A stretch of 64,000 nucleotides of DNA, taken from IMG/VR virus record IMGVR_UViG_3300042518_001860, positions 1 to 64,000 of that record, one strand, 5' to 3'. Position 1 is the first letter of the stretch. Each line of letters starts with the position of its first letter. A program made the position numbers and the translations under genes. This DNA comes from a virus. The notes beneath the pieces were generated by a model that had not been told where the DNA came from, searched no databases, and worked only from the letters and a program-made list of their open reading frames with translations. Below are positions 4,445 through 27,287 of this stretch, in pieces.

Positions 4445-5050
4445 ATGAACCACATCAAGAAGCTGCAGGCCCTCGGGGCCTGCGATGAATCCATCGAATT
4501 CGCCGCCCAGTTCTCCCACGCCCAGGAGGCGTGGGAGAACAACACACGGCCCGACTGGGCCCTGTGGCTTCTCGCCCGCCTCGGCGGCGAGCACAAACGG
4601 ATGGCGGTCCGCCTGGCGGCGGACTTCGCCGAACGGGTTGTCCACTTGGCCGGCGAAGGCCGGCCAGCGGCGGAAGCCGCCATCGCGGCGGCGAGAGCGT
4701 GGGCTGACGATCCCTGCGAGGAGACGCAGTCGGCGGCGCTGCGCGCCGCCTACGACGCCCGCGCCGCCGCCTACGACGCCCGCGCCGCCGCCTACGACGC
4801 CCGCGCCGCCGCCTACGCCGCCGACGCCGCCGACGCCGCCGCCTACGCCGCCGCCTACGCCGCCGCCTACGCCGCCGCCTACGCCGCCGCCTACGCCACC
4901 TACACCCCCGACGCCGTCGCCTGCGGCTGCGCCGCCGCCTACGCCGTCGACGCCGCCGCCGAACCGGGGGAGGAAAGGGCGTGGCAGATCTCGCGAATTC
5001 GTGAGATCTGTCCCAACTGTCCCATTGGGGAGGTAGGGAGCAGAGCGTGA
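4445..5050 (+). CDS. Ala/Tyr-repeat phage protein (AAYA/AAYDAR repeats)
   Basis: GGAGGA SD; N-terminal LGACDESIEF...DWALWL; 21- and 12-bp tandem repeats at ~4742-4960. Confidence 0.8.
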   Translation: MNHIKKLQALGACDESIEFAAQFSHAQEAWENNTRPDWALWLLARLGGEHKRMAVRLAADFAERVVHLAGEGRPAAEAAIAAARAWADDPCEETQSAALRAAYDARAAAYDARAAAYDARAAAYAADAADAAAYAAAYAAAYAAAYAAAYATYTPDAVACGCAAAYAVDAAAEPGEERAWQISRIREICPNCPIGEVGSRA

Positions 5051-5095
5051 GACTTTATGAGTTAGATTACAACAGTCTTCGAGAGGAGGCCCACT

Positions 5096-5341
5096 TTGAG
5101 GCTGGAAAGTGGTCGTCGAAATTTTCCTCGTAGAGGGGAGAAAGTCGGTCGCTTTGCCCGAGTAGAGATTGACTGCCCAGACGAGTCAGCGGCACGAGAG
5201 CTACTCCACGCTGCACTTTTCAAAGTTCGTGGGCAGTTTCAGAACTATGTAAGAGATGTAATCCACACCCTTACAGGTAGTCTTCAGGACACAAACCACC
5301 TCATCTACCTCGATGATTTGCGGACGCAGGACTTATCATGA
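5096..5341 (+). CDS. Hypothetical protein
   Basis: GAGGAGG SD before TTG. Confidence 0.55.
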   Translation: MRLESGRRNFPRRGEKVGRFARVEIDCPDESAARELLHAALFKVRGQFQNYVRDVIHTLTGSLQDTNHLIYLDDLRTQDLS

Positions 5342-5976
5342 ATCTCGCAACGATCCTGGGCAGACACCCATGCCCAAAATCCCTCATCTCCAGCCTTGAG
5401 GCCACCTTCCAGCCGGGACTCCAGGTAGAGTGGACACCTGAAGCTCAGCGTCAGGCACTCTCCTCCTTACCCCTGCGGCGACAATTCGGTCTCTTGGTTG
5501 AGGATGGAGTGCTGCCGCTCTGGAGTATGCGTAGATGGAACTTCTCATGTGAGAACCTGAGTGACCTCAACTTGACCTGTGGGGACCTATCCCGCGCGAA
5601 CTTGGATTCCACCAACCTGAGCCTGGCGTTTTTGGTGTGGACCAACCTCAACTTTGCCAGCATGCGTGGCGCGGACTTGTCCGGAGCTCACCTCGGCGGG
5701 GCGAGATTGCTTGGAGCAGTTCTGACAAAGGCCTCCCTCCGCAGTGCCAACCTGTACGGTGCAGACCTTAGAGGGGCCGACCTCAGTGGGGCGGATCTGT
5801 CTGAGGCGAACTTGTTTGAAGCCGACCTGCGAGATGCGAATCTCGAGGGCGCCAACTTGGCCGAGGCTGATTTGAGGGGGGCAAGCCGCACCTCGTATGA
5901 CCCGCCAGTTCCTGGGTGGGCTCTTCAGGTCCAGACTTCTGCGGAAGACACACGACTTCTTTTAATTAAGAATTAG
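5338..5976 (+). CDS. Pentapeptide-repeat protein, paralog of 2041-2613
   Basis: [23 protein letters not shown]; shares EWTP and C-terminal DPPVPGW-like motifs. Confidence 0.9.
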   Translation: MNLATILGRHPCPKSLISSLEATFQPGLQVEWTPEAQRQALSSLPLRRQFGLLVEDGVLPLWSMRRWNFSCENLSDLNLTCGDLSRANLDSTNLSLAFLVWTNLNFASMRGADLSGAHLGGARLLGAVLTKASLRSANLYGADLRGADLSGADLSEANLFEADLRDANLEGANLAEADLRGASRTSYDPPVPGWALQVQTSAEDTRLLLIKN

Positions 5977-6069: not shown

Positions 6070-6456
6070 GTGAAGTGCTTGTTCTTCTACTCGTCGAGCC
6101 AAGACGTTTTCTACCAGGCCACCCACAAGCTCCGCTGGCTACTGAAGGCCTATGACCCTGATCCCTCCTTCGAGACCTTCCGCCGCCAAGTGGTTGAAGA
6201 CGAAGACTATTTCACGAGCTTGTCTCAATTCGGGATCACTTGGGGCTTTGTGCGACCGCACATTGGTTTCATCTGGGACCCTAAGACCGAAGCCTTCAAC
6301 CGTGCCTTGAGTGAGTTCTGTGCTTGGTTTGACCAGACCATGGACAACCCGAAAAACCGCAACTCGGTTGGAGGTTATCGGTTCGTTGAGTTCCATCCCG
6401 GTCAGCGTTGCTACGAGGCACTCCTTCAACTTCATCCTGAAGGGGAGGCAGAGTGA
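6070..6456 (+). CDS. Hypothetical protein
   Basis: AAGGAGG SD before GTG at 6070. Confidence 0.7.
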   Translation: MKCLFFYSSSQDVFYQATHKLRWLLKAYDPDPSFETFRRQVVEDEDYFTSLSQFGITWGFVRPHIGFIWDPKTEAFNRALSEFCAWFDQTMDNPKNRNSVGGYRFVEFHPGQRCYEALLQLHPEGEAE

Positions 6457-6833
6457 CTACCAACTACTACGCGACTGGACTAGGTCTTCCTTCCATTGGT
6501 ACTCGAGTTCACCTCGGATTGAGCGCAAGCGGGTGGGTCTTCCAACTCAGGGTCTACCCGAATCTTGGCATCTCCTCTTGGGCAGATTGGTGGACCCTAC
6601 TGTCCAAGCCCGGAGTGCGAATCTGGGATGAGTACAAACATCGCGTCAGCCTGTCTGATTTCCTCAAGGTGGTGACGGAGCGTGAGCGCGGAAGCCAAGC
6701 AGTACGCTCTGCCGAATGGTGGCTAGTAAATCAGGCAGAACCTGGGCCCTGTGGCTTGGCCAGGTCTCGCGCGCACCTGGTCTACTCTTACGGGGAGGGA
6801 ACCTGGGAGTGCCATGACAAGGACTTCTCGTAA
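6453..6833 (+). CDS. Phage hypothetical protein
   Basis: MTTNYY...HLGLSASGWVF...IWDEY pattern recalled from phage proteins. Confidence 0.7.
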   Translation: MTTNYYATGLGLPSIGTRVHLGLSASGWVFQLRVYPNLGISSWADWWTLLSKPGVRIWDEYKHRVSLSDFLKVVTERERGSQAVRSAEWWLVNQAEPGPCGLARSRAHLVYSYGEGTWECHDKDFS

Positions 6834-6883
6834 GGAGCGGAGATGAACATATATTTCAATGGGTTGGAGCAGGAAAACACAAA

Positions 6884-7840
6884 ATGAACATCACCCATCA
6901 GGACATGCTCAAGGTCTGGGGGTACCTGCCCGCCAGGTTCTTCCTGAAGTTCGACGTGACGGCTACCCACGGGAAGTTCCTTGTCTTTCGAGAGGGGTCT
7001 TTGGAATGCGTCGTGGGGGTTCAGTTCGGAGGCCGCTACGTTTACGGCCTTCACAAAACAAACGGCGGAAAGTCGAACGTCGCATTGGCGGGTGGCCGCG
7101 GTTATCACCACAAGTGCGCTGAGGCCATCCTCATGCTCAGTGGGGAGAAGGCCAGCGAGCTTCGGAGCGCCCCGTCCACGCTGGAGGAGCGCCTTCTTCG
7201 ACAGTACGAGCACGAGGTCGTCTTTGGTGAAGACGCTGTTTGTGTCGTCCCCCCTCCTTACCACCCGGATCTGCTCGACTTGATGGTTGCGTCCAAGAGC
7301 GTGCAGGTTCACGCTACTGCCGCGCTACACGTAACACGGTGGGAGCACCAAGAAGTGCTGCTCCGAGACAGGGATCATGCTGTCCTCCTCGGCTTGCTGC
7401 AGAACCCACACTTGTGGCTGCGCTGCGTAGACGATCTCGCCACGGGCCCTTACAGCCACGACGTCCGAGAGCTCGCAATTCGCCGTGGGCCCAGTATCGA
7501 AGCGCTTGGTGCCTGCTTGATCAACGAGCCGCATGCAGATCTACGCGCGCTTGCCATTCGGATGTTGCCTCAGAGCGCGGTCACGAGCTTCAGATTCTGG
7601 TTGCGCAACGAGACCTCCCCCGTGGTGTGGCGCGCCCTTGCGGAGCGAAACTTCGTACCTCTCCCCGAGCGCATCTCGATGGTGAACCCTGAGCAAGACC
7701 AAGACGTCCGTCTGGCCATGTGCAAGCGGAGTGATCTCTCGACTGAGGAGGCTAAATGCCTCCTGACTGCTGCGACACCAAAGATGCGCGCCGCTATCAA
7801 GGCGAACCTCAACTGGCCTTTGCCGCGTTCCCCGTCTTGA
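6884..7840 (+). CDS. Helical-repeat (HEAT-like) protein
   Basis: Repeated D/E..VR.AL units in the C-terminal half. Confidence 0.55.
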   Translation: MNITHQDMLKVWGYLPARFFLKFDVTATHGKFLVFREGSLECVVGVQFGGRYVYGLHKTNGGKSNVALAGGRGYHHKCAEAILMLSGEKASELRSAPSTLEERLLRQYEHEVVFGEDAVCVVPPPYHPDLLDLMVASKSVQVHATAALHVTRWEHQEVLLRDRDHAVLLGLLQNPHLWLRCVDDLATGPYSHDVRELAIRRGPSIEALGACLINEPHADLRALAIRMLPQSAVTSFRFWLRNETSPVVWRALAERNFVPLPERISMVNPEQDQDVRLAMCKRSDLSTEEAKCLLTAATPKMRAAIKANLNWPLPRSPS

Positions 7841-7865
7841 CACGGTGGTAAAACTGTTGTAAGTT
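7837..7865 (+). promoter_or_regulatory. sigma70-type promoter with AAACTGTTGTA motif
   Basis: TTGACA-N17-TAAGTT. Confidence 0.7.
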
Positions 7866-7889
7866 GCTGCTAGCTTCAATTGGGGACTC

Positions 7890-8183
7890 ATGACCACTAT
7901 GCGGAACGATAGACCACCCTTTGGCTGGTTCCAGATTGAAAAGTACGAGGTCGAGGACGTCCAGTCCTTAGGGCGGGCGAGTGAGGTCGTCCGCCTCGAG
8001 GAGGAGGTGGGAGGTCTTCGTGGCTTCGAGAAGTTCATCAGGACCGCTATCATTTTCCGCGACGGAAGCTACGCCTTCTCCCGCTTCCGTGCGGTTGAGC
8101 TGGCAAAGCGCATCTCGGCAGCCCTCCAGAGTGGTTCAGCAGTCGAAACGCCCTCCTCCACACAAAAAGGAGACAAGGCATGA
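7890..8183 (+). CDS. Hypothetical protein
   Basis: ORF directly downstream of a promoter. Confidence 0.6.
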   Translation: MTTMRNDRPPFGWFQIEKYEVEDVQSLGRASEVVRLEEEVGGLRGFEKFIRTAIIFRDGSYAFSRFRAVELAKRISAALQSGSAVETPSSTQKGDKA

Positions 8184-8422
8184 GTCGTCCACTGGCCACA
8201 CGAGAAGTGAAGCAGGGGGTTGTTCTTCGCTTGCAGGACGACCGTTTCATTGGTGTTGCCTTGACAGGCCACACCCCCACTACGTTGAACCTGGCCGTCC
8301 TGTTCTCTCCCGAGAACCTCGAAGAGCTCGAGCGCCTCGAGCGCATGTTCGGGGCGACCCGAGTGGCTGCCGAACGGACAATCATCACCAGATTGGCAAC
8401 CGAGTCGAGGAGTTCACCATGA
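8180..8422 (+). CDS. Hypothetical protein
   Basis: AAGGAG SD, ATGA overlap. Confidence 0.65.
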   Translation: MSRPLATREVKQGVVLRLQDDRFIGVALTGHTPTTLNLAVLFSPENLEELERLERMFGATRVAAERTIITRLATESRSSP

Positions 8423-8718
8423 GGGCGCTCAAGCGTGTTCTGGATCGAGTAGGTGACCGAGTTGCAGCCTGGGTGCTTGGCTCGCTCGAGAGTGACGAGT
8501 CGACTGCCGCAGACGACTTGTACTTCGCCCTGATCCGCTCAGGCCTGCGCGTTGACGTGACGTGGCGCGATGAGCCGGATGCAGGTCGCGTGCGTCGAAT
8601 CTCGTACACCAATTCAAGGGGTGACCGCATCGTCGCTCATGACTTCACGTCCAACGGTCGGTACCTATTGACCGTCTGGGACTCCCCGACAACCAACCTC
8701 GCCCCCGAGGTCAAGTAG
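8419..8718 (+). CDS. Hypothetical protein
   Basis: GAGGAG SD, ATGA overlap. Confidence 0.65.
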   Translation: MRALKRVLDRVGDRVAAWVLGSLESDESTAADDLYFALIRSGLRVDVTWRDEPDAGRVRRISYTNSRGDRIVAHDFTSNGRYLLTVWDSPTTNLAPEVK

Positions 8719-9810: not shown

Positions 9811-10193
9811 GGAATCCGATTCAACCGGTCGTTGTCGCCGAGGGTGGTGTGGTGCGCTTCAAGAAGAACCTCCTGGTTAATGCGCTGGTCGAACACGGCG
9901 CAAAGACCGGGCTCGGCTTGAACCAACTCGCCGTGAGGTTCTCCGCCCCCGAACACGCTGACGACCGGCGTCAGCTCGCGCAGCTCATCGGTTACAGCCT
10001 CTCAGGGTTCGCAGATCTGAGCTATGCTGACGACGAGACCTGCATCGCCGCTGAGCAGATGCGCCAAGGCAAGAGTGAGGTCCAGGCTCGTATCGAGGCT
10101 CTCGAGACGAAGCTCGAACTGGTTCGTGGCGGGATGCGCGACGTTGTAGCCACCCTCTTTGAGATTCACCCCGACGATTTGGATGGCGGTTGA
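9807..10193 (+). CDS. Phage hypothetical protein
   Basis: NPIQP...RFKKN...QLAQLIGYSLSGFADLSY pattern recalled from phage proteins. Confidence 0.75.
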   Translation: MRNPIQPVVVAEGGVVRFKKNLLVNALVEHGAKTGLGLNQLAVRFSAPEHADDRRQLAQLIGYSLSGFADLSYADDETCIAAEQMRQGKSEVQARIEALETKLELVRGGMRDVVATLFEIHPDDLDGG

Positions 10194-10220
10194 ACCTCTT
10201 GTCTGAGGTTTGAAAAACTG

Positions 10221-10249
10221 TTGCATCAAGCTCGAGCTCATGGTATAGG
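10221..10249 (+). promoter_or_regulatory. sigma70-type promoter preceded by AAACTG
   Basis: TTGCAT-N17-TATAGG with TGn extension. Confidence 0.6.
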
Positions 10250-10275
10250 TGCTGAAACTATGCCGAGGACGAATC

Positions 10276-10692
10276 TTGAAGACCCAACCGACCGACATCG
10301 ACCGTGAGGCGGCCTCTCTGTTCGAGCCTGCGCCGGGGATGCGAGTCGCGTACCGGAGCATCTTTCACGGCCGGGCCAAGATGGAGTGGTGCCGGGTCAG
10401 GGATGGTAGAAACTGCATTTACGGCGGTGTCGATGGTATCGACACAGACGACCCGGCGACGGTCGGGTGCATGCTCGCGCAGGTCGAGGAACGCGGCGGC
10501 GGCGTGATTTGGACTCAACCTCACTGGCGCGTGAGCATCCCTGATGATGCGCCATATCACGGCAAGACGACAGCGACGATTATCGGGCGTAGCTGGTCTG
10601 TGATGACTATTGACGGCGTGGTCGGCGACGGGCCGACTGAGGGCGCTGCGCTGGTCGCGGTGATGCGCAAGCTGAAGGGGGTGAAGCGATGA
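10276..10692 (+). CDS. Hypothetical protein, paralog of 11606-12256
   Basis: GAGGA SD before TTG; DDPATVGCML...GPTEGAALVA. Confidence 0.65.
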   Translation: MKTQPTDIDREAASLFEPAPGMRVAYRSIFHGRAKMEWCRVRDGRNCIYGGVDGIDTDDPATVGCMLAQVEERGGGVIWTQPHWRVSIPDDAPYHGKTTATIIGRSWSVMTIDGVVGDGPTEGAALVAVMRKLKGVKR

Positions 10693-11084
10693 ACCTGGAC
10701 GAAATCAAGGCGCGGGCCGCTGCGGCGACGTCGGGGCCGTGGGGCGTGTCGACGTGGGAAGATCGAGAGGATGGTGGATTTTGCGCGGCCGGGCCACATC
10801 ACATATACGAGGACGCCGACGACCCGGATGAAGCGGCGTATGACGCGGCGCAGGTGGACGCTGTGTTCATCGCTAATGCCCGCACCGACATCCCCGCGCT
10901 CGTCGCGGAGGTCGAGCGGCTGCGGGCGCGGCGGGCAGAGGTCTGCGAGTGCGTCGGGGTCACCATGGGGTACCAGCAGGGTATGACCGTTGTCGCGTGG
11001 TTCCTCGACTACAGCGTATCGGCAAGGGTCGAGTGCCCTCGCTGCCACGGCTCCGGCGCGGTCATCGTGGAGGGCGACGCATGA
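10689..11084 (+). CDS. Ead/Ea22-like phage protein
   Basis: MNLDEIKARAAAATSGPW...DAVFIANARTDIPALVAEVERLR. Confidence 0.75.
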   Translation: MNLDEIKARAAAATSGPWGVSTWEDREDGGFCAAGPHHIYEDADDPDEAAYDAAQVDAVFIANARTDIPALVAEVERLRARRAEVCECVGVTMGYQQGMTVVAWFLDYSVSARVECPRCHGSGAVIVEGDA

Positions 11085-11521
11085 CCACCATCGAGGACCT
11101 GTGTGCCCTTCTGCCTGCCGAGCTGAACGGGGCGCCGACGCAACCGGGGTTTTATGTCGTGGAGGCTGGCAGCATTCCTGCGCGCGTTGTGGAGGTCGAG
11201 GTGGTCGGCGGCGGCGTATGGTGGGGTCGGCACAACATGCGTCACGCTGACATCACTCGCCACGCACCGATTGCCTTTACGTCCGTTGCCGAGACGCGGC
11301 GGGCCAATGATGCGGAGGCCGAGCGCGACGCGCTCAAGGTGGAGGTCGAGCGGTTGAAGGCTGCGCTCGAACGGGAAATGGAGCGGCAGTTCCGCGTCGG
11401 CGTTGTGCTCGCCGAATCGGGTTGCGATTGTGACTGCGGGCATCACTATGATGACCACGATGACGACTGCGAACGGTGTCTGGGGTGCCGCGTTGAGGCG
11501 GCGCTGCGGAGCAGGCCATGA
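11081..11521 (+). CDS. Hypothetical protein with coiled coil and Cys-rich C-terminus
   Basis: GGAGG SD, ATGA overlap; CDCDC...CERCLGC. Confidence 0.7.
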   Translation: MTTIEDLCALLPAELNGAPTQPGFYVVEAGSIPARVVEVEVVGGGVWWGRHNMRHADITRHAPIAFTSVAETRRANDAEAERDALKVEVERLKAALEREMERQFRVGVVLAESGCDCDCGHHYDDHDDDCERCLGCRVEAALRSRP

Positions 11522-11616
11522 AGACCATCCGATTGCTCTTCAACGACGAGATGGCCCGCGCCGTCGTCTTGGGCCTGCTGCGCATCGAGTTTGAGGGGGT
11601 GAATCATGTCCCCTGA
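11518..11616 (+). pseudogene. Probable internally deleted ASCH-domain gene remnant
   Basis: MKTIRLLFNDEMARAVVLG-LLRIEFEGV resembles the fused N- and C-termini of phage ASCH proteins. Confidence 0.45.
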
Positions 11617-12256
11617 CCGCCTGGAGATCACCCGGCGATGCCCCGGCTCCGGCCGATCCCTGGAGTCCCTCCCGGAGGAGACCGGCCCTCGCGTCGCCTG
11701 CCCCGGTTGCGGCTCGACGTTCGGGCGAGTCCAGTCCCGGAGCGGAATCCCCCACCACGACTCGCCGCGCGCCGCGCGTACCACGACGCCCCCGGCCGCC
11801 GACATTGCCACACCCTTGATCCGCGCCAGGACGCCGGAGGATCGCGGAGTCTACGCCCGCGAGCGCGAGGCCGATGCGCTCGCCCGGCGCTTTATGCGCT
11901 CTCCGAAGTTCAAGCCTCTCCGCGGCATGTGCGCGGTTGTCATTGGCGGATGGGCCGACGGAACGCCGCTGCGGTGGGACGGTAGCGGGTGGGCAGACTC
12001 GGACGGAGACTCAATCTACGGGTCGTGCGACGTCGTTCTGGATCTCGATGACGACCTGACCCGCGCCGGGCTGCTTCCGGTCGTGCGCGCGGCGCACGGC
12101 GCTCCGCATTTCGGAGTATGGTGCCGGCCCATGAACGAGCCGCATGTGCGGTGGTCATGTGGCGAGGCAGGCGGGCGCATATGGCTCGGACCCACCGAAG
12201 AATCCGCTCTTCTCACCGCCCTGGAGGCCGCTCGTGCGGCACGGGGGGAACGATGA
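11606..12256 (+). CDS. Hypothetical protein with N-terminal Cys motifs
   Basis: CPGSG..CPGCG; DLDDDLTRAGLL...GPTEESALLTALEAA. Confidence 0.65.
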   Translation: MSPDRLEITRRCPGSGRSLESLPEETGPRVACPGCGSTFGRVQSRSGIPHHDSPRAARTTTPPAADIATPLIRARTPEDRGVYAREREADALARRFMRSPKFKPLRGMCAVVIGGWADGTPLRWDGSGWADSDGDSIYGSCDVVLDLDDDLTRAGLLPVVRAAHGAPHFGVWCRPMNEPHVRWSCGEAGGRIWLGPTEESALLTALEAARAARGER

Positions 12257-16954: not shown

Positions 16955-17517
16955 CCTGCTCTGACGAAAACACACACATCATGCTTGACCTCGAGACGCT
17001 CTCGACCGCCCCAGATGCGGCCATCGTGAGCATTGGGGCACAGGTCTTCTACCCAGTGGCGGGTGGGCTTGGGGCCGCATTCTACGCTTGCATCCAACCT
17101 GAAGGGTGGAAGGGGCACATCGACCCCAAGACTGTCGCTTGGTGGCTCCAGCAAAGCGACCGTGCCCGCTGTGAAGTAGTTTCAGGGACCATGCAGACTC
17201 TCGAACACGCACTCCTCGATTTCAGCGCTTGGGTTCTGCGGACCTCCTACAACGGTAGTACTTCCAATCCAGTGTACATTTGGGCCAACAGCCCAGCATT
17301 TGACTGTGTAATCCTCCGCTCTGCATACCACAGAGTCGGACTCAAAGAGCCATGGTCCTTCCGCAACGAGCGGTGCTACCGCACAATCAGGGCCCTGAAC
17401 CCAAGGGTTCAAGGCCCCAGTGACACTGGTTGCGCCCACAACGCGCTGGATGATGCCAAGTGGCAAGCCGCGCATCTGCTTCGCCTCATGGGGCACGAGG
17501 ATAGCCATGCAGGTTGA
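16951..17517 (+). CDS. DEDDh 3'-5' exonuclease (Rv2179c/exo VIII-like)
   Basis: HIMLDLETL...IVSIGA...WANSPAFD...HNALDDAKWQA. Confidence 0.9.
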   Translation: MTCSDENTHIMLDLETLSTAPDAAIVSIGAQVFYPVAGGLGAAFYACIQPEGWKGHIDPKTVAWWLQQSDRARCEVVSGTMQTLEHALLDFSAWVLRTSYNGSTSNPVYIWANSPAFDCVILRSAYHRVGLKEPWSFRNERCYRTIRALNPRVQGPSDTGCAHNALDDAKWQAAHLLRLMGHEDSHAG

Positions 17518-18298
17518 CCCCAGAAATTCCCTGTCAGAAGACCTCATCTTCGCGCCCAAAGTTACGCTTGTGGCTGCTTCCCAAGTCGTAAACTGGCCCG
17601 ACTTTGCGCATGGCGAAGGCCAGGGTCAGGGAAGGTTCCCTGAGCGTCTTGTGGAACTTGCGGGGCGTGAGTGCTACGACTCCTGGGGGAGAGGTCGCAA
17701 ATCCCCTGAGTACCATGCCCACATTGCTGAAGCGCTCCACGGGAGTGTCCTCGAGCATGCGAACTTCACATTCAGAATCTCTGGGGTCTCGCGCTACCTG
17801 ACGCACGAACTCATTCGACATCGTGCTGGTTGTGCTGTGTCCCAGCGGTCCACTCGTTACGTCGATGAAGGCCGCGCATGTGTGGTTGTCCCGCCCGCCC
17901 TGATCATTACCGAGACAGATTCGGCAGAGAGGGCTCAGGAAAAGAGAGCAAGGCAGGCAGATCTTCTGACCTTCACTAAGCAAGGTCTGGCTATCTACCG
18001 GCAACTCTCTGTTAGCGCCTCTACTACAGCGCGAAAGACTATGCGCGGCGCAGCCCGGGCCTTTCTTCCAAGTCAGCTTGAAACCAGCCTGATTTGGACG
18101 GCCAACGCTCGTGCGCTCTTGAACGTCATCGAGCAGCGGTTCTCGGATGCGGCTGATGCGGAGATCTGCCGCCTGACTGGGCTCCTACTGACCGAAATGG
18201 CGGTCGAGATGCCGAGCTACTTTGGCGGAGCTCGCCGACAACTGCGCTCGGATGGTCTTGGCGACTGCCTTGTTCCAGGAACCTTGAGGGCCTTCTGA
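17507..18298 (+). CDS. thyX: Flavin-dependent thymidylate synthase
   Basis: HGSVLEH, THELIRHR-x7-SQRSTRY, ARAFLP, AEI. Confidence 0.93.
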   Translation: MQVDPRNSLSEDLIFAPKVTLVAASQVVNWPDFAHGEGQGQGRFPERLVELAGRECYDSWGRGRKSPEYHAHIAEALHGSVLEHANFTFRISGVSRYLTHELIRHRAGCAVSQRSTRYVDEGRACVVVPPALIITETDSAERAQEKRARQADLLTFTKQGLAIYRQLSVSASTTARKTMRGAARAFLPSQLETSLIWTANARALLNVIEQRFSDAADAEICRLTGLLLTEMAVEMPSYFGGARRQLRSDGLGDCLVPGTLRAF

Positions 18299-19568: not shown

Positions 19569-19852
19569 CCGTCTTCTTTCTCCCGGGCTGCCCTGCGTGC
19601 GATGCGAATTCAGAGAAGTCGACTCTGGCCACTGAAGAGATCCACGCTCGACTCCACGAACTGATTGCCCTCGACCACAAAGAGCGAGCCACTCCGAGCG
19701 TTTTGGATCTCCTCAATCGACTGGACCGCCGACTCGATACAGTTGTTCGAGTGCTTGAAGAGATTGACGGGGCGGATGAGGCTGAGTTTCTTGTCTCAGA
19801 GGCTCTCGACGATCTCGAAGCCCTTTATGCTGCGCTGGAGTACGAACGATGA
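19565..19852 (+). CDS. Hypothetical protein
   Basis: AAGGAGG SD, GTGA overlap. Confidence 0.65.
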   Translation: MTVFFLPGCPACDANSEKSTLATEEIHARLHELIALDHKERATPSVLDLLNRLDRRLDTVVRVLEEIDGADEAEFLVSEALDDLEALYAALEYER

Positions 19853-20925
19853 AACTCTCCCGCTACACCAGGTTTCTTGTCTCTGAGGATTATGACCTCG
19901 GCGGTTTGGCAGGTTCGGAGTGGCGAGAGATTCCCGCGGACCTGACCAGCAGCGCCGGGTTCGTCCCATACGAGGCTGGGGGCGACCTTATCGTGGACCT
20001 TGACATTTCGGTCTACCTCCTGCAGTTCAGGCTGGATGAGATTGAGCTTCATGCCCCGACGCTCAAGACACGCATCAAGGAGCGTGAGCAGGCTTTGTGC
20101 CGAGAGGCAGGTGTCCCCAAACTCAGCCGTTATGAGCGTGCTGAGCTCGCTGAGGTGGTTAGGGCGGAGATGATTGCCAATACGCCGCCTCGAACCACAC
20201 TCGTCCCCATCCTCTTGGATTCGGACTCGCGAACGTTGCTGATTGCAACGACCAGCAAGAAGCTGGTCGACCTTGTCGCATTGGCGTTCGAGACCGCGAC
20301 TCAAGCAAAACTCACGCCTACGAGCCCGCTCCTTCGAGCTCGAGCTCGGGACCTCGACTGGTTGAAGTTCCACTACACAGACATCTTGCGCGACGAGTCG
20401 GGGGTGAGTCTTCAGAGCCAAGTACCAGATGACTATCTCGGCCGTCTGGATCTCGCGAGGAAGTTTGGTCCTGACTTCTTGCTCTACCTGCTCCACCGGG
20501 AACGCGAAGGCGGGTCAGATATTGCCTTTTCTTTCGGCGACTGCCTGAAGTTCAAGCCCTCGCAAGACCCGTTGGCGCTGGTTTCTTCAGCGATGAAGGG
20601 TGAAGAAGTGGCTTCGTCAGCCGTAGCTCATCAGGCAATCCTGCGGGGTTGCCCTATTGCTGAGGCGAAGCTCAACTTCAACCTTGCTGGTACCCTGATT
20701 CCCTTCTCATTGGCAGCCGACACGCTTGCAGTGCTTGGAGCGAAACTCCCTGTCAGCTTGGCTGAGGATGAGTATGAGGCTATCCTTGAGGACTCCCTCT
20801 ATGTTGAACGTCTCGAGAGCGCTATTGACGAGGCCTTTGTGTCCTTCCTGGACTTGTGGGTTGGTGAGCAAGGCCCACCTCTGCGCGAAGCGATGCGTGG
20901 TACCATCTTGAACGCGGAGGTCTGA
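19849..20925 (+). CDS. rdgC: Recombination-associated protein RdgC-like
   Basis: SAGFVP...LQFRLDE...IKEREQ...KLSRYERAELAEVVRAEM...PPRT...LLIATTSKK; size fits. Confidence 0.72.
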   Translation: MKLSRYTRFLVSEDYDLGGLAGSEWREIPADLTSSAGFVPYEAGGDLIVDLDISVYLLQFRLDEIELHAPTLKTRIKEREQALCREAGVPKLSRYERAELAEVVRAEMIANTPPRTTLVPILLDSDSRTLLIATTSKKLVDLVALAFETATQAKLTPTSPLLRARARDLDWLKFHYTDILRDESGVSLQSQVPDDYLGRLDLARKFGPDFLLYLLHREREGGSDIAFSFGDCLKFKPSQDPLALVSSAMKGEEVASSAVAHQAILRGCPIAEAKLNFNLAGTLIPFSLAADTLAVLGAKLPVSLAEDEYEAILEDSLYVERLESAIDEAFVSFLDLWVGEQGPPLREAMRGTILNAEV

Positions 20926-21131
20926 TGTCACGCCCTAAAATCGACGTTTCACGCGATGGTAAGTGTACGGACTGTGGGAACCCCAACTTGGAGGTCACCT
21001 TCTCGAGTGGTGGGGGTATGTGCCGTCGCTGTGTGGCCTACTACCGCAGCGACTCTTTGGATCGTGAGAACGTCGATTTAGGGGTCCTGACCAAACCTTC
21101 CAGGCGGTGGAAAAGGAACCGTGACAAATGA
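20925..21131 (+). CDS. Small zinc-ribbon protein
   Basis: CTDC...CRRC. Confidence 0.55.
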   Translation: MSRPKIDVSRDGKCTDCGNPNLEVTFSSGGGMCRRCVAYYRSDSLDRENVDLGVLTKPSRRWKRNRDK

Positions 21132-21556
21132 TAGCACTTGCACTCTCCATCAGCTTGTGGGGCTCCTTTGCTACCTATCTCCACAAGGCGAACTGTCCTG
21201 TAGATTCATGGTCGACTTGGGTGGTGTGCCAGGAGGTGGCTCTCGCCGCAAAGACTGTGGGTGGGCCTATCCGAATCACGACTACGCTCGCGTGGTCTGA
21301 GTCTCGTTTCCTTCCAGAGCGTGTATCCTCAGTTGGCGCGGTCGGGCCCCTGCAGGTTCTCCCACGCTACTGGTGCCCTGGAGGTGGAGTTGACCGCTGC
21401 GACCTGACCCTGGCTGGGGCGCTTGCGGTCAAAACCCTTGTCAACCGCTACGGGGCGGAGCGGGGTTTGTGCCATTTTGCCGCTGGAAACGTATGCAATG
21501 CGCGTGCCCTTCGATATGCGCAGTACATCCTGCGTCGGACTAAACATCGTAGATGA
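21128..21556 (+). CDS. SLT-family lytic transglycosylase with hydrophobic N-terminus
   Basis: AWSESRF (catalytic Glu), GAVGPLQV, GLCHFAAG (AYNAG-like). Confidence 0.8.
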   Translation: MIALALSISLWGSFATYLHKANCPVDSWSTWVVCQEVALAAKTVGGPIRITTTLAWSESRFLPERVSSVGAVGPLQVLPRYWCPGGGVDRCDLTLAGALAVKTLVNRYGAERGLCHFAAGNVCNARALRYAQYILRRTKHRR

Positions 21557-21581
21557 CATCGAGAAAACCCGAAGGTAAGAT
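21553..21581 (+). promoter_or_regulatory. sigma70-type promoter, probably giving a leaderless mRNA
   Basis: ATGACA-N17-TAAGAT ending 6 nt before ATG 21588. Confidence 0.5.
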
Positions 21582-21587
21582 GCGCGC

Positions 21588-21962
21588 ATGGACTCGATCA
21601 ACGACCAAGCCCGCATCCTGCTCGAGTTGAAGGAGATTCTGTCCCGACTCGAGAATTTGCAGCGCAGTAGTGATAAAACTACCGCCGCCATCAATGGACT
21701 CGACCTCGAGACCCGTCTTCAAGAAGTTCTACGGGAATTCGGCCGTCAGGCCGACCGAACCCTTCAGCACATCGAGACTATCGAAAAGGGTCGGGCTGTA
21801 GAACGGGAGATGCGTGTCAGCATCGCCAGCAAGGTGGCGGCAGAACTCTGGCAGAAGGGCGGCCAGTATATTGTGTTGGGCGCCTCTCTTCTACTTGTTG
21901 GTGCAGTTGCCAAATATCTTGGTCTGCCTGTACCCTTCTTCGGTCAGATCGGGGGACCATAA
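21588..21962 (+). CDS. Coiled-coil protein with C-terminal TM helix (holin/XhlA-like architecture)
   Basis: Heptad-rich N-part; YIVLGASLLLVGAVAKYLGL. Confidence 0.6.
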   Translation: MDSINDQARILLELKEILSRLENLQRSSDKTTAAINGLDLETRLQEVLREFGRQADRTLQHIETIEKGRAVEREMRVSIASKVAAELWQKGGQYIVLGASLLLVGAVAKYLGLPVPFFGQIGGP

Positions 21963-22396
21963 TGCAGCCCAGCCGTGTCCTCCTTGTTGAGGATGATGAA
22001 GACGACGCCTTCCTCAGCAAGCGCTCACTGAAGAAGGCTATGGATGCTCGCGGTATCACATACGATCTCGAGCATGTCCGGAATGGGAAGGCGGCCCTGG
22101 ACCGCCTTTTTCAAGGTGAGGTCCTGAGAGCGCCAAACTTCGACCTTGTCCTTCTCGACTTGATGATGCCCATCATGGATGGGAAGGAGACGCTCGAGGC
22201 TATTCGACAACATCCGCAGGGGTACAAGATCCCTGTGGTTGTTCTGACTACCAGTGACAACCATCGAGAGATCGACTTGGTCTGGGGGCATGGAGTCTCG
22301 GCCTACATCCTTAAGCCTGTAACTGCGGCCGACTACGCCTCGATCATGGACTCCACTGGAACTTTGTTCCTCCGGCACAACCGCTCCGTACGTTGA
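21962..22396 (+). CDS. Single-domain response regulator (CheY-like, Rcp1 type)
   Basis: LLVEDDEDD, LLDLMMPIMDG, VLTTS, ILKP: all catalytic residues present. Confidence 0.95.
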   Translation: MQPSRVLLVEDDEDDAFLSKRSLKKAMDARGITYDLEHVRNGKAALDRLFQGEVLRAPNFDLVLLDLMMPIMDGKETLEAIRQHPQGYKIPVVVLTTSDNHREIDLVWGHGVSAYILKPVTAADYASIMDSTGTLFLRHNRSVR

Positions 22397-23322
22397 ATCC
22401 TGTCTATCTGGTTGTCCGCCCCTGGAACGCGCTCTCCGTCTTGGCGGCAGCAGCCACCTCCATCGCTTTGCTCACCGAAGCCCAGGTGAAGGAGATCATC
22501 CTCCTAACCATTATGTGGGCGGCCACTATGTTGACTGCTGTTCTAGAACACCGTAGGGCAGCACTCCGAACGCGGGAGGCCCTGACTCAGAGCCTGACGC
22601 TGCAGAAGCGCAATGAGGACCTTCAGCGAGCAAATTCGGCCCTCGAGCGATTTACCTCCGTGGCAGCACACCAAATGCGCTCCCCTCCCCGCACGATCAA
22701 GGGCCTGGCTATGACTGCTCTGGAGGAGTATGGGGACCGGCTACCAGTGGAAGCGCGGGACCTCCTCGAGAGCATCATGCGGCGCGCAGACAATTTGCTC
22801 GAGGTGATCACAGTGCTGCACGAAATGGGCATGCGCCATTCGGCGTCGATCACGCTCCGCCCGTTGGAAGTCGCAAAGATGATCCCCTCTGCGAGGGGAC
22901 GTGTGGGAGCTCAATGGCGAGGTGAGATTGACTGCAGTGAGCTTCCCCCGTGGCTCGAGGTGGTGGGTAACGACATCCTTTTTGTGGAGGTGCTGGCCAA
23001 CCTCATCGAGAACGGGTGGAAGTTCAACGAGAGTCCTGTACCAACCGTGAGATTCTCCGGTTGCGTTGAGAACGGATTCTGTCGACTCCGAATCGCAGAC
23101 AACGGGATTGGGTTGTCGCCCAGTACAACTGGGCTATTTCAGCTTTTCCGCCGACACACCGACCGCTTCCCTGGGACAGGGGTAGGCCTTGCTCTCGTCC
23201 ATCAGGCGGTTGAGAAGATGGGTGGAAAGATCTCGGTGGTCAATCCCAGACAAGGGGAAGGGGCGGCCTTCGAAATCGAGCTTCTTGCCCCCAAAAGTTC
23301 CGGGAAACGCGACGTCTTCTGA
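22393..23322 (+). CDS. Membrane sensor histidine kinase (HisKA + HATPase_c)
   Basis: Two TM helices, coiled coil, AAHQMRSP, NLIENGWKF, DNGIG, LFQLF, GTGVGLA. Confidence 0.93.
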   Translation: MNPVYLVVRPWNALSVLAAAATSIALLTEAQVKEIILLTIMWAATMLTAVLEHRRAALRTREALTQSLTLQKRNEDLQRANSALERFTSVAAHQMRSPPRTIKGLAMTALEEYGDRLPVEARDLLESIMRRADNLLEVITVLHEMGMRHSASITLRPLEVAKMIPSARGRVGAQWRGEIDCSELPPWLEVVGNDILFVEVLANLIENGWKFNESPVPTVRFSGCVENGFCRLRIADNGIGLSPSTTGLFQLFRRHTDRFPGTGVGLALVHQAVEKMGGKISVVNPRQGEGAAFEIELLAPKSSGKRDVF

Positions 23323-23333
23323 GGAGGTGCTTC

Positions 23334-23885
23334 TTGGGTCGAATCCACGGGTACTGCGGGCCGATGTTCAGTGGGAAGTCCACACTGCTCATTGACCAAC
23401 TCCGCCGCGCCGAGATCGCCGGCAAGCGGGTGATCTGCTTCAAAGCCAGTCTTGATAATCGGTATGCTGCTGACCAGGTCTGCACGCATACCCGGCAAAC
23501 TATGGAGGCGAGGCCGACTCCCCCCACGACAATCGGGGCTGCTGCAATCGGCCGGCTCTCGAGGGGCTACGACGTCGTTGGCGTGGATGAGGTGCAGTTC
23601 TTCCCAACAACAATTGTTGACGAGTTCCTCGAGCTCCGCGCGATGGGTAAGGTCGTCCTGTGGGCCGGGCTTGATATGGACTTTCTTGGGCTCCCGTTTG
23701 GGCCAGTTCCAACGCTGATGGCGGTGGGCGGGGTATCGAAATTGTTCGCGGTCTGCCACTCTTGCGGTGATATGCAGGCCACGCACACCTATCGCGTTGA
23801 CAAGTCACGAAGCGAGCAGGTCCTCGTCGCTGGGCTGGATGGTTACCAAGCACGTTGTTATGCTTGCTGGGCGAAAAACTCTTGA
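23334..23885 (+). CDS. tdk: Thymidine kinase
   Basis: GPMFSGKST, VDEVQFF, AGLDMDF, CHSC...YQARCYAC. Confidence 0.95.
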   Translation: MGRIHGYCGPMFSGKSTLLIDQLRRAEIAGKRVICFKASLDNRYAADQVCTHTRQTMEARPTPPTTIGAAAIGRLSRGYDVVGVDEVQFFPTTIVDEFLELRAMGKVVLWAGLDMDFLGLPFGPVPTLMAVGGVSKLFAVCHSCGDMQATHTYRVDKSRSEQVLVAGLDGYQARCYACWAKNS

Positions 23886-23909
23886 CGAGTGCAACAATTG
23901 GAGTAGACT
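23882..23909 (+). promoter_or_regulatory. sigma70-type promoter with reversed operator-like motif
   Basis: TTGACG-N16-TAGACT; TGCAACAATTG in the spacer. Confidence 0.55.
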
Positions 23910-23915
23910 CACCCT

Positions 23916-24197
23916 ATGCCAAAAGTTGATATTCGACATGAAGATCGATACGAGACCGTGACCGCGATTGCGGTTTTCGGTCCTTGGGCCATCACTCCCT
24001 CCCGCCGCCCCGAAACCTCTGGGCTCGTAGTCACGCATGTTCCCAGTGGGACGCAGGCTTGGCCCAACAGGGCCTGCGCGCCAATTCTACTACCCGAGGC
24101 CATCGCCATGGCCAAGAAACTGCAGAGCGTGTGGAACTCGGACTCCAACATGCCGGACACAATCCGGCTCCAAATCAAGGGCATGGTCTGCGCATGA
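23916..24197 (+). CDS. Hypothetical protein
   Basis: ORF directly downstream of a promoter. Confidence 0.6.
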   Translation: MPKVDIRHEDRYETVTAIAVFGPWAITPSRRPETSGLVVTHVPSGTQAWPNRACAPILLPEAIAMAKKLQSVWNSDSNMPDTIRLQIKGMVCA

Positions 24198-24394
24198 AGG
24201 CCATGGTGTTGGAGTACGCCTCGAGGCGGGAGGCAATGGCTGCCTACACGCAGTTCTGCAAAATCATGCAAGCGCAGCCGAAAATGGTTCTCTCTGTGGA
24301 GGTCGACCTCGAGGATGACCTTGTCATCATCGAAGGTACGGATGAGTTTTTGGGTATCTTGGAAGCCAAACTTCATCCTGCTCAAACAACCTGA
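24194..24394 (+). CDS. Hypothetical protein
   Basis: ATGA overlap. Confidence 0.5.
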   Translation: MKAMVLEYASRREAMAAYTQFCKIMQAQPKMVLSVEVDLEDDLVIIEGTDEFLGILEAKLHPAQTT

Positions 24395-24430
24395 CTTGCT
24401 TTTATTGACATCTGCTGCAACCATTGCGGC

Positions 24431-24715
24431 ATGCAGCAGATCACACACCTCTTCCTCCAATTCATCGCAGAGAACCCTGACCTCCCGACTTCGCGGTTTG
24501 AGGGTCTCTACAACCACGCCAATCCGCGTAATGGGCAGCCTCACCTCGAGGACAAAGCCCGTGTCTGGGCAAGGTGCCAGCTCTGCCGAATGCGACTGCA
24601 GGGACTCGTTGAGTCAGTACCCGCGGAACGCCCGGCAGAGTACCAGCGTCGTGTGGGTCCCTACAGGGTCTGGCGACTGACTGAAGTTGGACGTCGTACG
24701 CTCGAGAGCGTATGA
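24431..24715 (+). CDS. Winged-helix (PadR-like) DNA-binding protein
   Basis: LCRMRLQGLVES...WRLTEVGRRTL wing motif. Confidence 0.6.
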   Translation: MQQITHLFLQFIAENPDLPTSRFEGLYNHANPRNGQPHLEDKARVWARCQLCRMRLQGLVESVPAERPAEYQRRVGPYRVWRLTEVGRRTLESV

Positions 24716-25209
24716 ACATCAAGACGCCGCCCGTCCCGGTTCGAGTCCTGCCGACGACCGTAGCGTCTGGGCCTCGCTCGGAGTTGGACGAGATCATTCA
24801 GGCCAGACGGACGCGCGCTAAGCCGTCCAACCTCGATGACTACGCCTGGTCACTAGCTGAGGAGATGCGGCGTAACGGTGGGCTGTTCGACTTGTCCGTT
24901 CAGATTGCTCGGCTCGAATCCCACTATGCCGAGATTGAGCGGCTTGTTGAGCAGAACGACATCCTTCGATCTACGGCTCTTACTCTTCAAATCCGCCTGA
25001 CCACCCAGATTGCTGACCTGAAGGCCAAGGCTGTGGATGTCGCAGCCAAAACCCGCACCATCATCACACTTGATGGGATGCAGGTCGTCATGCAGGCCCT
25101 TTTGGCCTCACTGCAGACGCATATCCATGATCCGCATCTACTCGAGAAGATCGGTCGTGATGTGACAGATGCAGTCCGCGCTGCCCTGGCTTCCGTGAGG
25201 CAGAAGTGA
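24712..25209 (+). CDS. Probable terminase small subunit
   Basis: Helical 165-aa ORF overlapping the TerL start; positional inference. Confidence 0.5.
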   Translation: MNIKTPPVPVRVLPTTVASGPRSELDEIIQARRTRAKPSNLDDYAWSLAEEMRRNGGLFDLSVQIARLESHYAEIERLVEQNDILRSTALTLQIRLTTQIADLKAKAVDVAAKTRTIITLDGMQVVMQALLASLQTHIHDPHLLEKIGRDVTDAVRAALASVRQK

Positions 25210-27287
25210 AATCACCTGGGCACGTTGCAGGTCTCGTAGGCGAGTTCCGCGTCAAAGAAGCCACAAAGCGAGTCGTCGAGGATGAATTTGACGAACTCCT
25301 CACGGGCTTCGAGCGCGCTCTCCAGACCACAGGTGGAACAGAGCTCGAGGCGCCCCTCCTCTCCCCTGAAGAGTGGATCGAGAACCCCTACTACGCAGGC
25401 CCCTTCGCCGGGTCATTTCTTTGGCCTGAAAAGAAGCGCGTGTTCTGCAAGGCAGCGCGCGGTGACAATATCGTCAACGTGTTTACTGGCGCCATCGGTA
25501 CTGGCAAGACGCAGTTGATTGTGCTGATTGCCCTGTACGACCTGTACCGGATGTGCAACTTCGTCTCCCCCCACGCTTTCTTGGGCTTTCCAGCCACGTC
25601 TGAACTCGTCACGGTTCTAATCCACCAGAACCAGACGAAGGCCAAGGACAAGATCCTTGACCCGTTGCGAGCAGCAGTGGACCTCACGCCATACTTCAAG
25701 CGGGAGTGTCCCCGAGACAAGCGACTTGAGAGCAGCATCTTCTTCCCCAGGAAGAACGTAAAGGCGCGCGTGGGTGTCACTGGGGAGGCCGCTATCCATG
25801 GTGAAGACGTCTTCGCGCTACACTGCTCAGAAGCGAACTTCTATTCCGTTGTGGCCGACTCCGTCCGCAAGCGAGGTGGCGAGGTTCTCGACGTAGCACA
25901 GGACCTGCATGACAGTATGCTGGTCCGATGGGAGTCACGTTTCCTGCGTGGTGGGAAGCTCCAGCTCTGCCGTATGAGCCTGGACTCCTCCCGCCAATAC
26001 CCTGACGACTTTGTCGAACGGGTGGAGAAGCGCATCCTGCGGGGTGACTACCCCTACCCAGCGCAGGTCTTCTCCATGTCTCAATGGGACGCCAAGCGAG
26101 GCGTCCTCGACAACATGGGCAAGCCCCTCTACTCTGGGCGCGTCTTCCCCGTTGAAGTGGCTACAGGCAACCGCGTCAGTCGCATCTTGGATGCCGATGA
26201 AGTCGAACACGCCATCGGGCAGGTCGTCTGGTGTGCTGAGGAGCATCGAGCCTCTTTCGAGGGAGATATTGACAAGGCTCTTCGGGACCTGGCCGGTGTT
26301 GCTGTCCAGGGCTTGCACCCACTAATCCCACAGCGCGAGGCCATCTCGGCGTGTTTCCGCCTCGAGCCTGCCTTCCAACAGCACCAAGTCATGCACCCCT
26401 TCACCGCCACGACCACTACGTTGCGGGACAGCGTGGCGATGATCCTGGACTTCTTGTGCGACAGCAAGACTCGCCAACCGCGAGTTAACCCCGACAAACT
26501 TCGCACCGTGCATGTTGATCCAGCGTTCACCAGCGACGCCCTTGGCTTGTGCATGGCGCATGTTGACGAAGTCGTCACGGTCAATCGCATGACCGAAGGG
26601 CAACTCGATATTCCCTGTCTTGTCTGCTGTATAGGGGATAACCCTACCCCAGGCGTTGTACGTTGTCCGCGCTGTGTAGGTTCTGGTCTCCGGAAGCATT
26701 ACGGTAGGACCGTGGCCTGCGTTGAGTGTCGTGGGGCTAAGGTTATCAAGTGCCCCTCGTGTAAGGGGTCCATGAAGCACGGTACTCCGACTCAGCGTCC
26801 CCGCGTCTATGCGGACCTGACACTTCAGGTCACGCCCCCGAAGTCGGGGCGCATTCAATTTGACGACGTGGAGGCCCTTCTCGCTCGACTCCGTGCCGGA
26901 GGTTTCCGCATTGCGGTGGTCACGGCTGACGGTCATCAGTCAGAGCAATTCCTGCAGCGGCAACTGAATGAGACGGGCGTCTATATCGCAGAGAAACTTT
27001 CCATGGACACGTCCAAGGACCCCTACTACGCGCTCCGCGACTCGATCCTTGACTTGGACTCTGAGGGGCGTCGGCGGTTGAGTCTCTATGACTACCCGCC
27101 CCTCTTCGATGAACTGTGTCGTGTCGAGGATCGTCGAGACAAAATTGACCACCCACGAAATGGGTCCAAGGATGTTGCTGATGCCTTAGCGGGTGTGGTG
27201 TACAATTGCGAGGTTCACGGCTTTCTGCGAGAGTCGGTCATCTCTGGAAACCTTCAAGTCAAGGGGTTCGACGGTAAGGTGCGATGA
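25206..27287 (+). CDS. terL: Terminase large subunit
   Basis: Walker A GAIGTGKT; nuclease VHVDPA...VTADGHQS...KIDHPRNGSKDVADA. Confidence 0.92.
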   Translation: MKSPGHVAGLVGEFRVKEATKRVVEDEFDELLTGFERALQTTGGTELEAPLLSPEEWIENPYYAGPFAGSFLWPEKKRVFCKAARGDNIVNVFTGAIGTGKTQLIVLIALYDLYRMCNFVSPHAFLGFPATSELVTVLIHQNQTKAKDKILDPLRAAVDLTPYFKRECPRDKRLESSIFFPRKNVKARVGVTGEAAIHGEDVFALHCSEANFYSVVADSVRKRGGEVLDVAQDLHDSMLVRWESRFLRGGKLQLCRMSLDSSRQYPDDFVERVEKRILRGDYPYPAQVFSMSQWDAKRGVLDNMGKPLYSGRVFPVEVATGNRVSRILDADEVEHAIGQVVWCAEEHRASFEGDIDKALRDLAGVAVQGLHPLIPQREAISACFRLEPAFQQHQVMHPFTATTTTLRDSVAMILDFLCDSKTRQPRVNPDKLRTVHVDPAFTSDALGLCMAHVDEVVTVNRMTEGQLDIPCLVCCIGDNPTPGVVRCPRCVGSGLRKHYGRTVACVECRGAKVIKCPSCKGSMKHGTPTQRPRVYADLTLQVTPPKSGRIQFDDVEALLARLRAGGFRIAVVTADGHQSEQFLQRQLNETGVYIAEKLSMDTSKDPYYALRDSILDLDSEGRRRLSLYDYPPLFDELCRVEDRRDKIDHPRNGSKDVADALAGVVYNCEVHGFLRESVISGNLQVKGFDGKVR

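Follow-up and report, generated by a model that had tools for sequence, protein, structure and literature searches.

Isolated signalling genes occur in phage genomes, and a locus in the IMG/VR virus record IMGVR_UViG_3300042518_001860 raises the question of whether a histidine kinase, a receiver, and a small membrane protein encoded next to one another could form a signalling system of the virus itself, and whether such a system would belong to a lysis cassette. The record is 96.7 kb long and is estimated to be 61% complete, the CheckV estimate corresponding to a genome of ~160 kb, and the window analysed here is its first 64 kb. The terminase, portal, thyX, and thymidine kinase (TK) genes of the record confirm that the source is a phage. 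A preliminary description of the window had proposed that four adjacent genes constitute a two-component module joined to a lysis-like cassette. We consider it reasonably probable that three of these genes make up a translationally coupled phage signalling cassette, which consists of a membrane protein with a WxKGG motif, an Rcp1-like receiver, and a HisKA-type kinase of a clade that has Gln next to the phospho-acceptor His (the HQ clade). Judging from gene order, the core unit is three genes, not four, and the SLT gene at its upstream side is a lineage-specific neighbour outside the device. Provided that the three genes function together, they would represent a virus-owned sensory pathway, through which the reading and steering of infected cells by big phages could be approached. 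The features of the locus are as follows (TM, transmembrane; aa, amino acids; DHp, dimerization and histidine phosphotransfer domain; CA, catalytic and ATP-binding domain).

21128-21556, plus strand: exported lytic transglycosylase of the SLT type (142 aa), next to the trio in this lineage only and outside the conserved unit
21553-21581, plus strand: promoter-like site ATGACA-17-TAAGAT with 9 of 12 positions matched, located in the 31-bp gap that precedes the trio
21588-21962, plus strand: 124-aa tail-anchored coiled-coil protein, first gene of the conserved trio
21960-21964, plus strand: TAATG, an overlap of the membrane-protein stop codon with the receiver start codon
21962-22396, plus strand: 144-aa stand-alone receiver, Rcp1/CheY-like, with phospho-acceptor D66 and no output domain
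22393-22396, plus strand: TTGA, where the kinase start overlaps the receiver stop
22393-23322, plus strand: 309-aa membrane histidine kinase with TM1-short loop-TM2, a 40-aa helical linker, DHp, and CA

The four adjacent reading frames and both start/stop overlaps given in the preliminary description are present in the sequence, and nearly all genes of the window lie on the plus strand. Its claim that the trio has a promoter of its own is not confirmed, because the two such sites found in the region are at chance level, compared to 1.6 ± 1.3 in shuffled sequences. A GAAGG element is located ~13 nucleotides (nt) ahead of the ATG of the membrane-protein gene and is enough for ordinary coupling of the trio to the upstream gene.

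Conservation of the trio among phages

Seven genomic contexts were compared, namely six IMG/VR contigs, which were found with degenerate DNA patterns for the W-x-K-G-G-Q motif and the H-box, and one metagenome contig (L056); scans of IMG/VR with the kinase and with the membrane protein as single proteins gave no match. The H-box pattern retrieved these six IMG/VR contigs, all of which carry the genes in the order membrane protein, receiver, kinase. In L056, the local order is kept from thyX to the open reading frames (ORFs) before the terminase gene, and the membrane protein, receiver, and kinase are 46%, 65%, and 54% identical to those of the window, respectively. Three contigs (L061, L062, and L064) whose terminase is 56% identical to that of the window have the same trio ~3 kb upstream of the terminase gene, and their kinase combines the TM hairpin with a PAS domain. 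The same trio was also found in the AT-rich contig L067/L072, in which the 760-aa kinase has three PAS domains besides a multi-TM domain of the ETR1_N-like kind, and in L074/L075, new contigs from the H-box scan that derive from a 169-kb record. Collectively, the trio spans four phage lineages at 29-65% identity with intact active sites. Two of these lineages (L072 and L075) have estimated genomes of ~450-530 kb by CheckV, which rates G001 (72.8 kb) as 16% complete, G005 (169 kb) as 32%, and G006 (39.7 kb) as 8%.

The close packing of the genes was followed at their junctions. Between the membrane-protein and receiver genes, a GTGA overlap is present in L056 and L061, TAATG in L072, and a 2-nt gap in L075; between the receiver and kinase genes, there is an ATGA overlap in L061 and again TAATG in L072. 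In all readable contexts, the gene of the 124-aa family lies directly upstream of the receiver gene, and no neighbour other than the trio genes is conserved between lineages in the contexts compared. Of the four genes, synteny is retained for the membrane protein, receiver, and kinase and not for the SLT gene. Every relative with a visible upstream region has the kinase/receiver pair, which supports the view that the pair is not a one-off pick-up from a host. Among GenBank phages, neither a near DNA match nor a match to the membrane protein nor a close HQ kinase was found. A common contig is also probable for cluster P0148 of the membrane protein and for P0005, a kinase with PAS, since the longest contig of both has 372,084 bases. 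Contigs of 355-518 kb that encode protein clusters of the kinase and receiver clades may represent huge phages.

The receiver has a Pfam Response_reg match (3.4e-16) with the residues E10-D11-D12, D66, T96, and K118-P119 and no further domain, as had been noticed from the sequence. In the alignment, D11, D66, K118, and P119 are invariant, and E10 and T96 are nearly so. The nearest named relatives are annotated as 'Rcp1' or 'CheY-like'. In the trees, which were built with FastTree, the five receivers of the module fall in one 18-leaf group that otherwise contains only metagenomic sequences (support 81) and that is set apart from named bacterial or cellular Rcp1-like receivers; the kinase and receiver phylogenies run in parallel. 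As separate observations, a large protein database holds the kinase of the window at 100% identity and the SLT protein at 98%, with no entry above 68% for the receiver, and the receiver frame is open for 239 codons, so gene callers may start it elsewhere. A PADLOC match of the receiver to PDC-M60B (3.6e-05) was taken as noise.

Single-nucleotide polymorphisms (SNPs) were collected from contigs of four metagenome runs. The membrane-protein gene has one synonymous and no non-synonymous SNP, the receiver gene two and none, and the kinase gene ten and six, respectively. Thus, 13 of the 19 SNPs in the trio are synonymous, compared to an expected share of 0.29 (P = 4e-4), and there are zero indels. 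The trio is under purifying selection in lake populations.

These data bear on the possibility that the genes are passengers, that is, a host-derived two-component operon with no phage-specific role. Such an origin would be in keeping with the kinase/receiver families of unknown function that phage databases already contain, such as phrog_857 and phrog_731, and with the kinase core, which is ~30-35% identical to ordinary bacterial kinases. However, passengers would hardly be kept in four phage lineages at the identities given above, with intact active sites and under purifying selection. Moreover, the H-box of the window type is absent from one genome of each of 185,579 GTDB species, in a search that was made with window-type patterns only, and no protein of the HQ clade carries the name of a cellular organism, as several of its Asp-type relatives do. 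Taken together, the passenger explanation appears very improbable.

The kinase and its HQ-type H-box

The kinase matches HATPase_c (2.4e-16) and, just below the cut-off of 26.9 bits, HisKA (26.4 bits; 7.4e-06). Its TM helices span residues ~11-28 and ~36-53 and are connected by a loop of ~7 residues (TEAQVKE), with no Pfam domain before HisKA. The topology described previously, in which two TM helices are joined by a few residues, is thus confirmed, and there is no domain between TM2 and DHp. The TTG start is supported because homologues begin at the same position. The H-box reads H-Q-M-R-S-P, where the invariant H93 is followed by Q94 (codons at 22669-22674). In the CA domain, the N, G1, F, and G2 boxes are intact, N207, D236, G238, G240, F249, F252, G261, G263, and G265 being invariant; N203 is nearly invariant, and the N-box Asn that pairs with the residue after the His (H+1) is conserved. 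All catalytic residues are therefore conserved except the H+1 acid, since the usual Asp or Glu is replaced by Gln. At the level of the whole system, the phospho-His H-box, the CA boxes, and the receiver pocket expected of a two-component pair are present, and the H+1 acid is missing.

This replacement is not peculiar to the window. The HQ clade comprises 36 sequences with AHQ[LM][RK]xP, which separate from 72 Asp-type relatives with Shimodaira-Hasegawa-like (SH-like) support of 100. All five phage copies of the kinase are inside this clade, and the Gln at H+1 is invariant throughout it. The closest kinase relatives in GTDB are at most 40% identical (at most 31% across the full kinase core), and none of them has an HQ H-box. 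The clade-wide Gln could be regarded as a natural experiment on a residue that is held essential for HisKA autophosphorylation.

The sensor part varies within the clade, from a TM hairpin only to a TM hairpin with PAS or an ETR1_N-like domain with three PAS domains. The kinase of the window is sister to P0005, with L061 as the next relative, and both of these carry PAS, so that its two-helix-only form is most simply read from the tree as a derived loss of PAS. The earlier idea that the device senses membrane state as its defining input is not supported, because the two-helix architecture is derived and sister lineages carry PAS or ETR1_N-like domains. No LOV-type NCRF motif was found in the PAS-bearing relatives. 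In the L072 kinase (6286-8568), the N-terminus matches ETR1_N (7.2e-09) and keeps a C-x3-H motif, CGVGH, where plant ETR1 has its copper ligands.

In other kinases, experiments have shown that autophosphorylation depends on the H+1 acid and is weakened or abolished by its loss. The D529H variant of Agp1 is inactive (PMC8292422), Glu249 of CpxA acts as the general base (PMC3904827), and autophosphorylation of PlrS is strongly impaired by E522A (bioRxiv 10.1101/2022.10.06.511181). DrBphP, with which the HQ protein shares a non-acidic H+1, is a precedent for a phosphatase role: its H+1 residue is His, it dephosphorylates its Rcp1-like receiver, and its H+7 Arg supports the phosphatase reaction and the receiver contact (PMC8292422). 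Phosphatase activity has also been tied to Thr or Asn at H+4, or to Glu in DrBphP (PMC8292422). In the HQ clade, the H+7 Arg is invariant (R100 in the window), and H+4 is Ser, Gly, or Ala. A mainly phosphatase function was considered because H+1 is Gln. By analogy with these enzymes, the HQ protein may or may not be competent as a kinase, the chances being about even, and the odds would likewise be about even that it is a poor kinase whose chief activity is to dephosphorylate the receiver.

If the phosphatase role is taken to its limit, the locus could serve to interfere with a host phosphorelay, in which the HQ protein would act as a phosphatase, the receiver as a phosphate sink, and the membrane protein as a holder of both beside host kinases. 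The invariance of Gln at H+1, the crippling effect of losing the H+1 acid in Agp1 and PlrS, the phosphatase activity of DrBphP on its Rcp1-like receiver, and the conserved R100, which corresponds to the Arg supporting that activity, all fit such a role, and cross-talk is conceivable in that the receiver family is common in bacteria. However, the N, G1, F, and G2 boxes are fully conserved, and H+4 is not the phosphatase-linked Thr or Asn, nor the Glu of DrBphP. We therefore regard interference with a host phosphorelay as unlikely, though less so than the passenger explanation.

The membrane protein and the proposed mechanism

The remaining member of the trio is the 124-aa protein, which has helices at residues 3-37 and 40-111 forming a hairpin, a C-terminal TM segment at ~93-113, and a short uncharged tail. 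Its AlphaFold2 (AF2) model, with a mean predicted local distance difference test (pLDDT) score of 76, shows two long helices that run on into the C-terminal TM helix. The predicted topology is thus a cytoplasmic helical hairpin of ~90 aa followed by a single C-terminal TM. In the family alignment, R26 (within N-[LI]-x-R-S), W88, G91, and G92 are invariant, and the motif W88-x-K90-G91-G92 stands ahead of the TM. The family has nine representatives in a profile search of 1.84 billion representative proteins. No match was obtained to a Pfam, PHROG, NCBIfam, or PADLOC family or to a holin family, and a fold search of the model against viral structures returned nothing at E <= 0.001. Atlas searches gave no usable lead, with DUF1515 appearing in 13% of one cluster only, and a PADLOC typeIV_DinG match (0.0018) on the coiled coil was taken as noise. 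On these comparisons, the 124-aa protein defines a small, unannotated, new family. The label 'holin-like' that it had received is not sustained, given the lack of any holin or other family match and the hairpin with a single C-terminal TM. The suggestion of a small accessory membrane protein fares better, since the protein is the constant companion of the kinase/receiver pair.

For the trio as a signalling cassette, the following sequence of events can be proposed. The kinase protein would set the phosphorylation of the receiver according to a cell-state signal from its variable sensor; in the PAS-less form of the window, the task of reading this signal would fall to the TM hairpin, the partner protein, or both. 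The receiver would have to act by binding a partner because it has no output domain, and the WxKGG membrane protein, being the sole constant companion, is taken as that partner, which may dock the receiver at the membrane. Its role could be that of a co-regulator of the kinase, which we propose tentatively, or that of an output which couples the phosphorylated receiver to a membrane event, which seems somewhat less likely. A cytoplasmic contact of the WxKGG protein is more likely than a TM-TM contact as far as conservation can tell, because N-[LI]-x-R-S is the best-conserved cytoplasmic motif and the TM parts of the kinase vary. For most stand-alone receivers the target is not known, and the WxKGG protein would add a new type of partner to those that are. 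A bolder version, in which the trio is a phage-specific three-component membrane switch of phages of ~130-530 kb, with an HQ protein that may be mainly a phosphatase, with exchangeable sensors for the condition of the infected cell, and with a protein-protein event at the membrane or a drain on a host phosphorelay rather than transcription as its output, is less likely than not. In full-text literature searches, no account came up of a full kinase/receiver pair that is kept, along with a third component of its own, across unrelated large and huge phages.

Comparison with known systems gives partial likenesses. The resemblance to Cph1/Rcp1-type modules that had been noted holds for the stand-alone Rcp1-like receiver and does not extend to the photosensor. 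As in Cph1-Rcp1, Agp1, and DrBphP-DrRR, a stand-alone receiver partner is encoded beside the kinase, the relatives of the trio receiver being called Rcp1- or CheY-like, and the kinase is of the broad HisKA type of bacteriophytochrome-type kinases, as which its relatives at ~30% identity are annotated by the Joint Genome Institute (JGI). In contrast to these modules, neither the kinase of the window nor its phage relatives have a PAS-GAF-PHY photosensor, the trio kinase is membrane-anchored and has Gln rather than His or Asp at H+1, and the trio always co-encodes a membrane protein and sits in phage genomes.

Intramembrane-sensing kinases, a class as defined by Mascher, work with accessory membrane proteins in LiaFSR and BceRS-AB. 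The kinase of the window is similar in having two TM helices, an outer loop of ~7 residues (fewer than 25), and no other input domain, and in being co-encoded with a small membrane protein. It fits the definition of the class, whereas its sister lineages with PAS or ETR1_N do not. The trio differs from LiaFSR and BceRS-AB in that its accessory protein has no family match to LiaF or BceAB, its receiver lacks a DNA-binding output, and the minimal architecture in the window was apparently derived by loss of PAS within the clade. LytSR controls the holin-like CidAB and LrgAB, and LytR is a DNA-binding regulator. In both systems, a membrane kinase and a receiver are connected with murein hydrolase activity as well as with small membrane proteins; unlike LytSR, the trio has no transcriptional output, its membrane protein is not Cid/Lrg-like, and its muralytic neighbour is not conserved. 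Phage phiCDHM1 carries agr genes (PMC3901668). They form a quorum-sensing cassette of the host type, which reportedly includes a sensor histidine kinase and lacks a receiver. Such a kinase gene in a phage genome is common to both loci, and the trio is distinguished by a full kinase/receiver pair, a new third component, and a kinase clade not seen in named bacteria.

Several points weigh against the three-gene cassette as a phage signalling device. The contact of the WxKGG protein with the receiver or the kinase, as well as the phosphotransfer, for which the parallel kinase and receiver trees give indirect support, are proposals inferred from the sequences, and with regard to the activity of the HQ protein, the conserved ATP-binding boxes and the N-box Asn would argue against a pure phosphatase. 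Most members of the HQ clade and of the WxKGG family are known as proteins only, outside the seven contexts, and the 372-kb and 518-kb contigs could be bacterial, which makes the confinement of the clade to phages less sure. The receiver tree, with 149 columns and a support of 81, is poorly resolved. Finally, an exported muralytic gene lies within 2 kb upstream in three of the four closest contexts, which leaves some probability for a connection to lysis in this lineage.

The muralytic neighbour and the surrounding genome

The last point returns to the question of lysis. By itself, the SLT protein matches Pfam SLT only below the cut-off (E 0.0015), and its top PDB profile matches are all transglycosylases or lysozymes with weak E-values. 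Relatives at 55-62% identity carry Pfam SLT (PF01464), and the family keeps WSESRF (with the catalytic E58), GPLQ, AAGN, a signal-like N-terminus, and six Cys. The original assignment is therefore weak for the protein alone and well backed by its relatives and invariant motifs, which together identify an exported lytic transglycosylase. In L056, the slot directly upstream of the trio (4955-5347) is occupied by an unrelated exported protein, which is related to a hydrolase of L061 with a weak Hydrolase_2/SleB match, encoded 1.6 kb upstream of the trio. The presence of an SLT protein in the window and a probably SleB/Hydrolase_2-like protein in the same slot of L056 looks like non-orthologous replacement. 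In L072 and L075, the trio lies among genes for HNH nucleases, endonuclease V, and an RNA ligase and among genes of unknown function. Family searches found no SLT, lysozyme, amidase, or Hydrolase_2 gene in the G001 record, and no muralytic gene was found among the Pfam-scanned neighbours of the L075 trio, the sole part of that record that was checked. Since the muralytic gene is replaced, displaced, or not found near the trio in relatives, it is, as far as these contexts indicate, a feature of one lineage and not of the device. The join to a lysis cassette that had been suggested is accordingly not conserved: a muralytic enzyme is present, and a recognised holin family or topology and a conserved adjacency are not.

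An alternative in which the locus times lysis would assign the role of endolysin to the SLT protein and that of a holin, or of a regulator of one, to the 124-aa protein, with the kinase and receiver sensing membrane state. It draws on the exported SLT-like enzyme directly upstream of the trio, on the exported SleB-like hydrolases in the L056 slot and 1.6 kb upstream in L061, and on the scarcity of small membrane proteins in the record, of which the 124-aa protein is one. The record also contains an Amidase_2 gene (E 2.8e-21), which has neither a signal peptide nor an obvious adjoining holin. On the other hand, a muralytic gene near the trio was not detected in either of the huge-phage lineages, the sensors of sister lineages are cytoplasmic PAS domains, and the 124-aa protein matches no holin family. 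To our knowledge, known holins differ from this layout, in which a long cytoplasmic hairpin leads to one C-terminal TM and a tail that carries no charge. Holins are diverse, and the protein may have a hole-forming activity despite the mismatch in family and topology. On balance, lysis timing is improbable, ranking between interference with a host phosphorelay and the passenger explanation. No clear holin or spanin gene was seen in a crude ORF map of the whole record.

Outside the locus, the following genes and frames were recorded, in which the coordinates of the last line refer to the record.

17420-18298: thyX, upstream of the four genes
19849-20925: RdgC-like gene
20925-21131: 68-aa ORF with two CxxC pairs (zinc-ribbon-like), between the RdgC-like and SLT genes
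23334-23885: thymidine kinase, directly after the four genes and followed by three small ORFs
23909-24544, minus strand: 211-aa ORF, probably a shadow
25206-27287: large terminase, with the portal gene next
89572-90201, plus strand: Amidase_2 gene (N-acetylmuramoyl-L-alanine amidase), ~25.6 kb past the end of the window

The Amidase_2 gene is a second, separate endolysin candidate, located 66 kb from the trio. The zinc-ribbon-like ORF overlaps the end of the RdgC-like gene at the stop codon and the SLT gene at its start, and it has a counterpart of 49% identity in L056. Small plus-strand ORFs at 23916-24197 and 24431-24715 overlap the 211-aa minus-strand ORF and have counterparts of 42% identity in the same contig. 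No tRNAs were found in the window. The phage has been seen repeatedly in lake and freshwater metagenomes from many studies. Its large terminase contains, at residues ~470-525, an insert with four CxxC motifs of the CxxCxGxG kind that resembles the DnaJ zinc finger, and the L061 terminase (9947-12034), which has been compared above, also has a CxxCxGxG insert.

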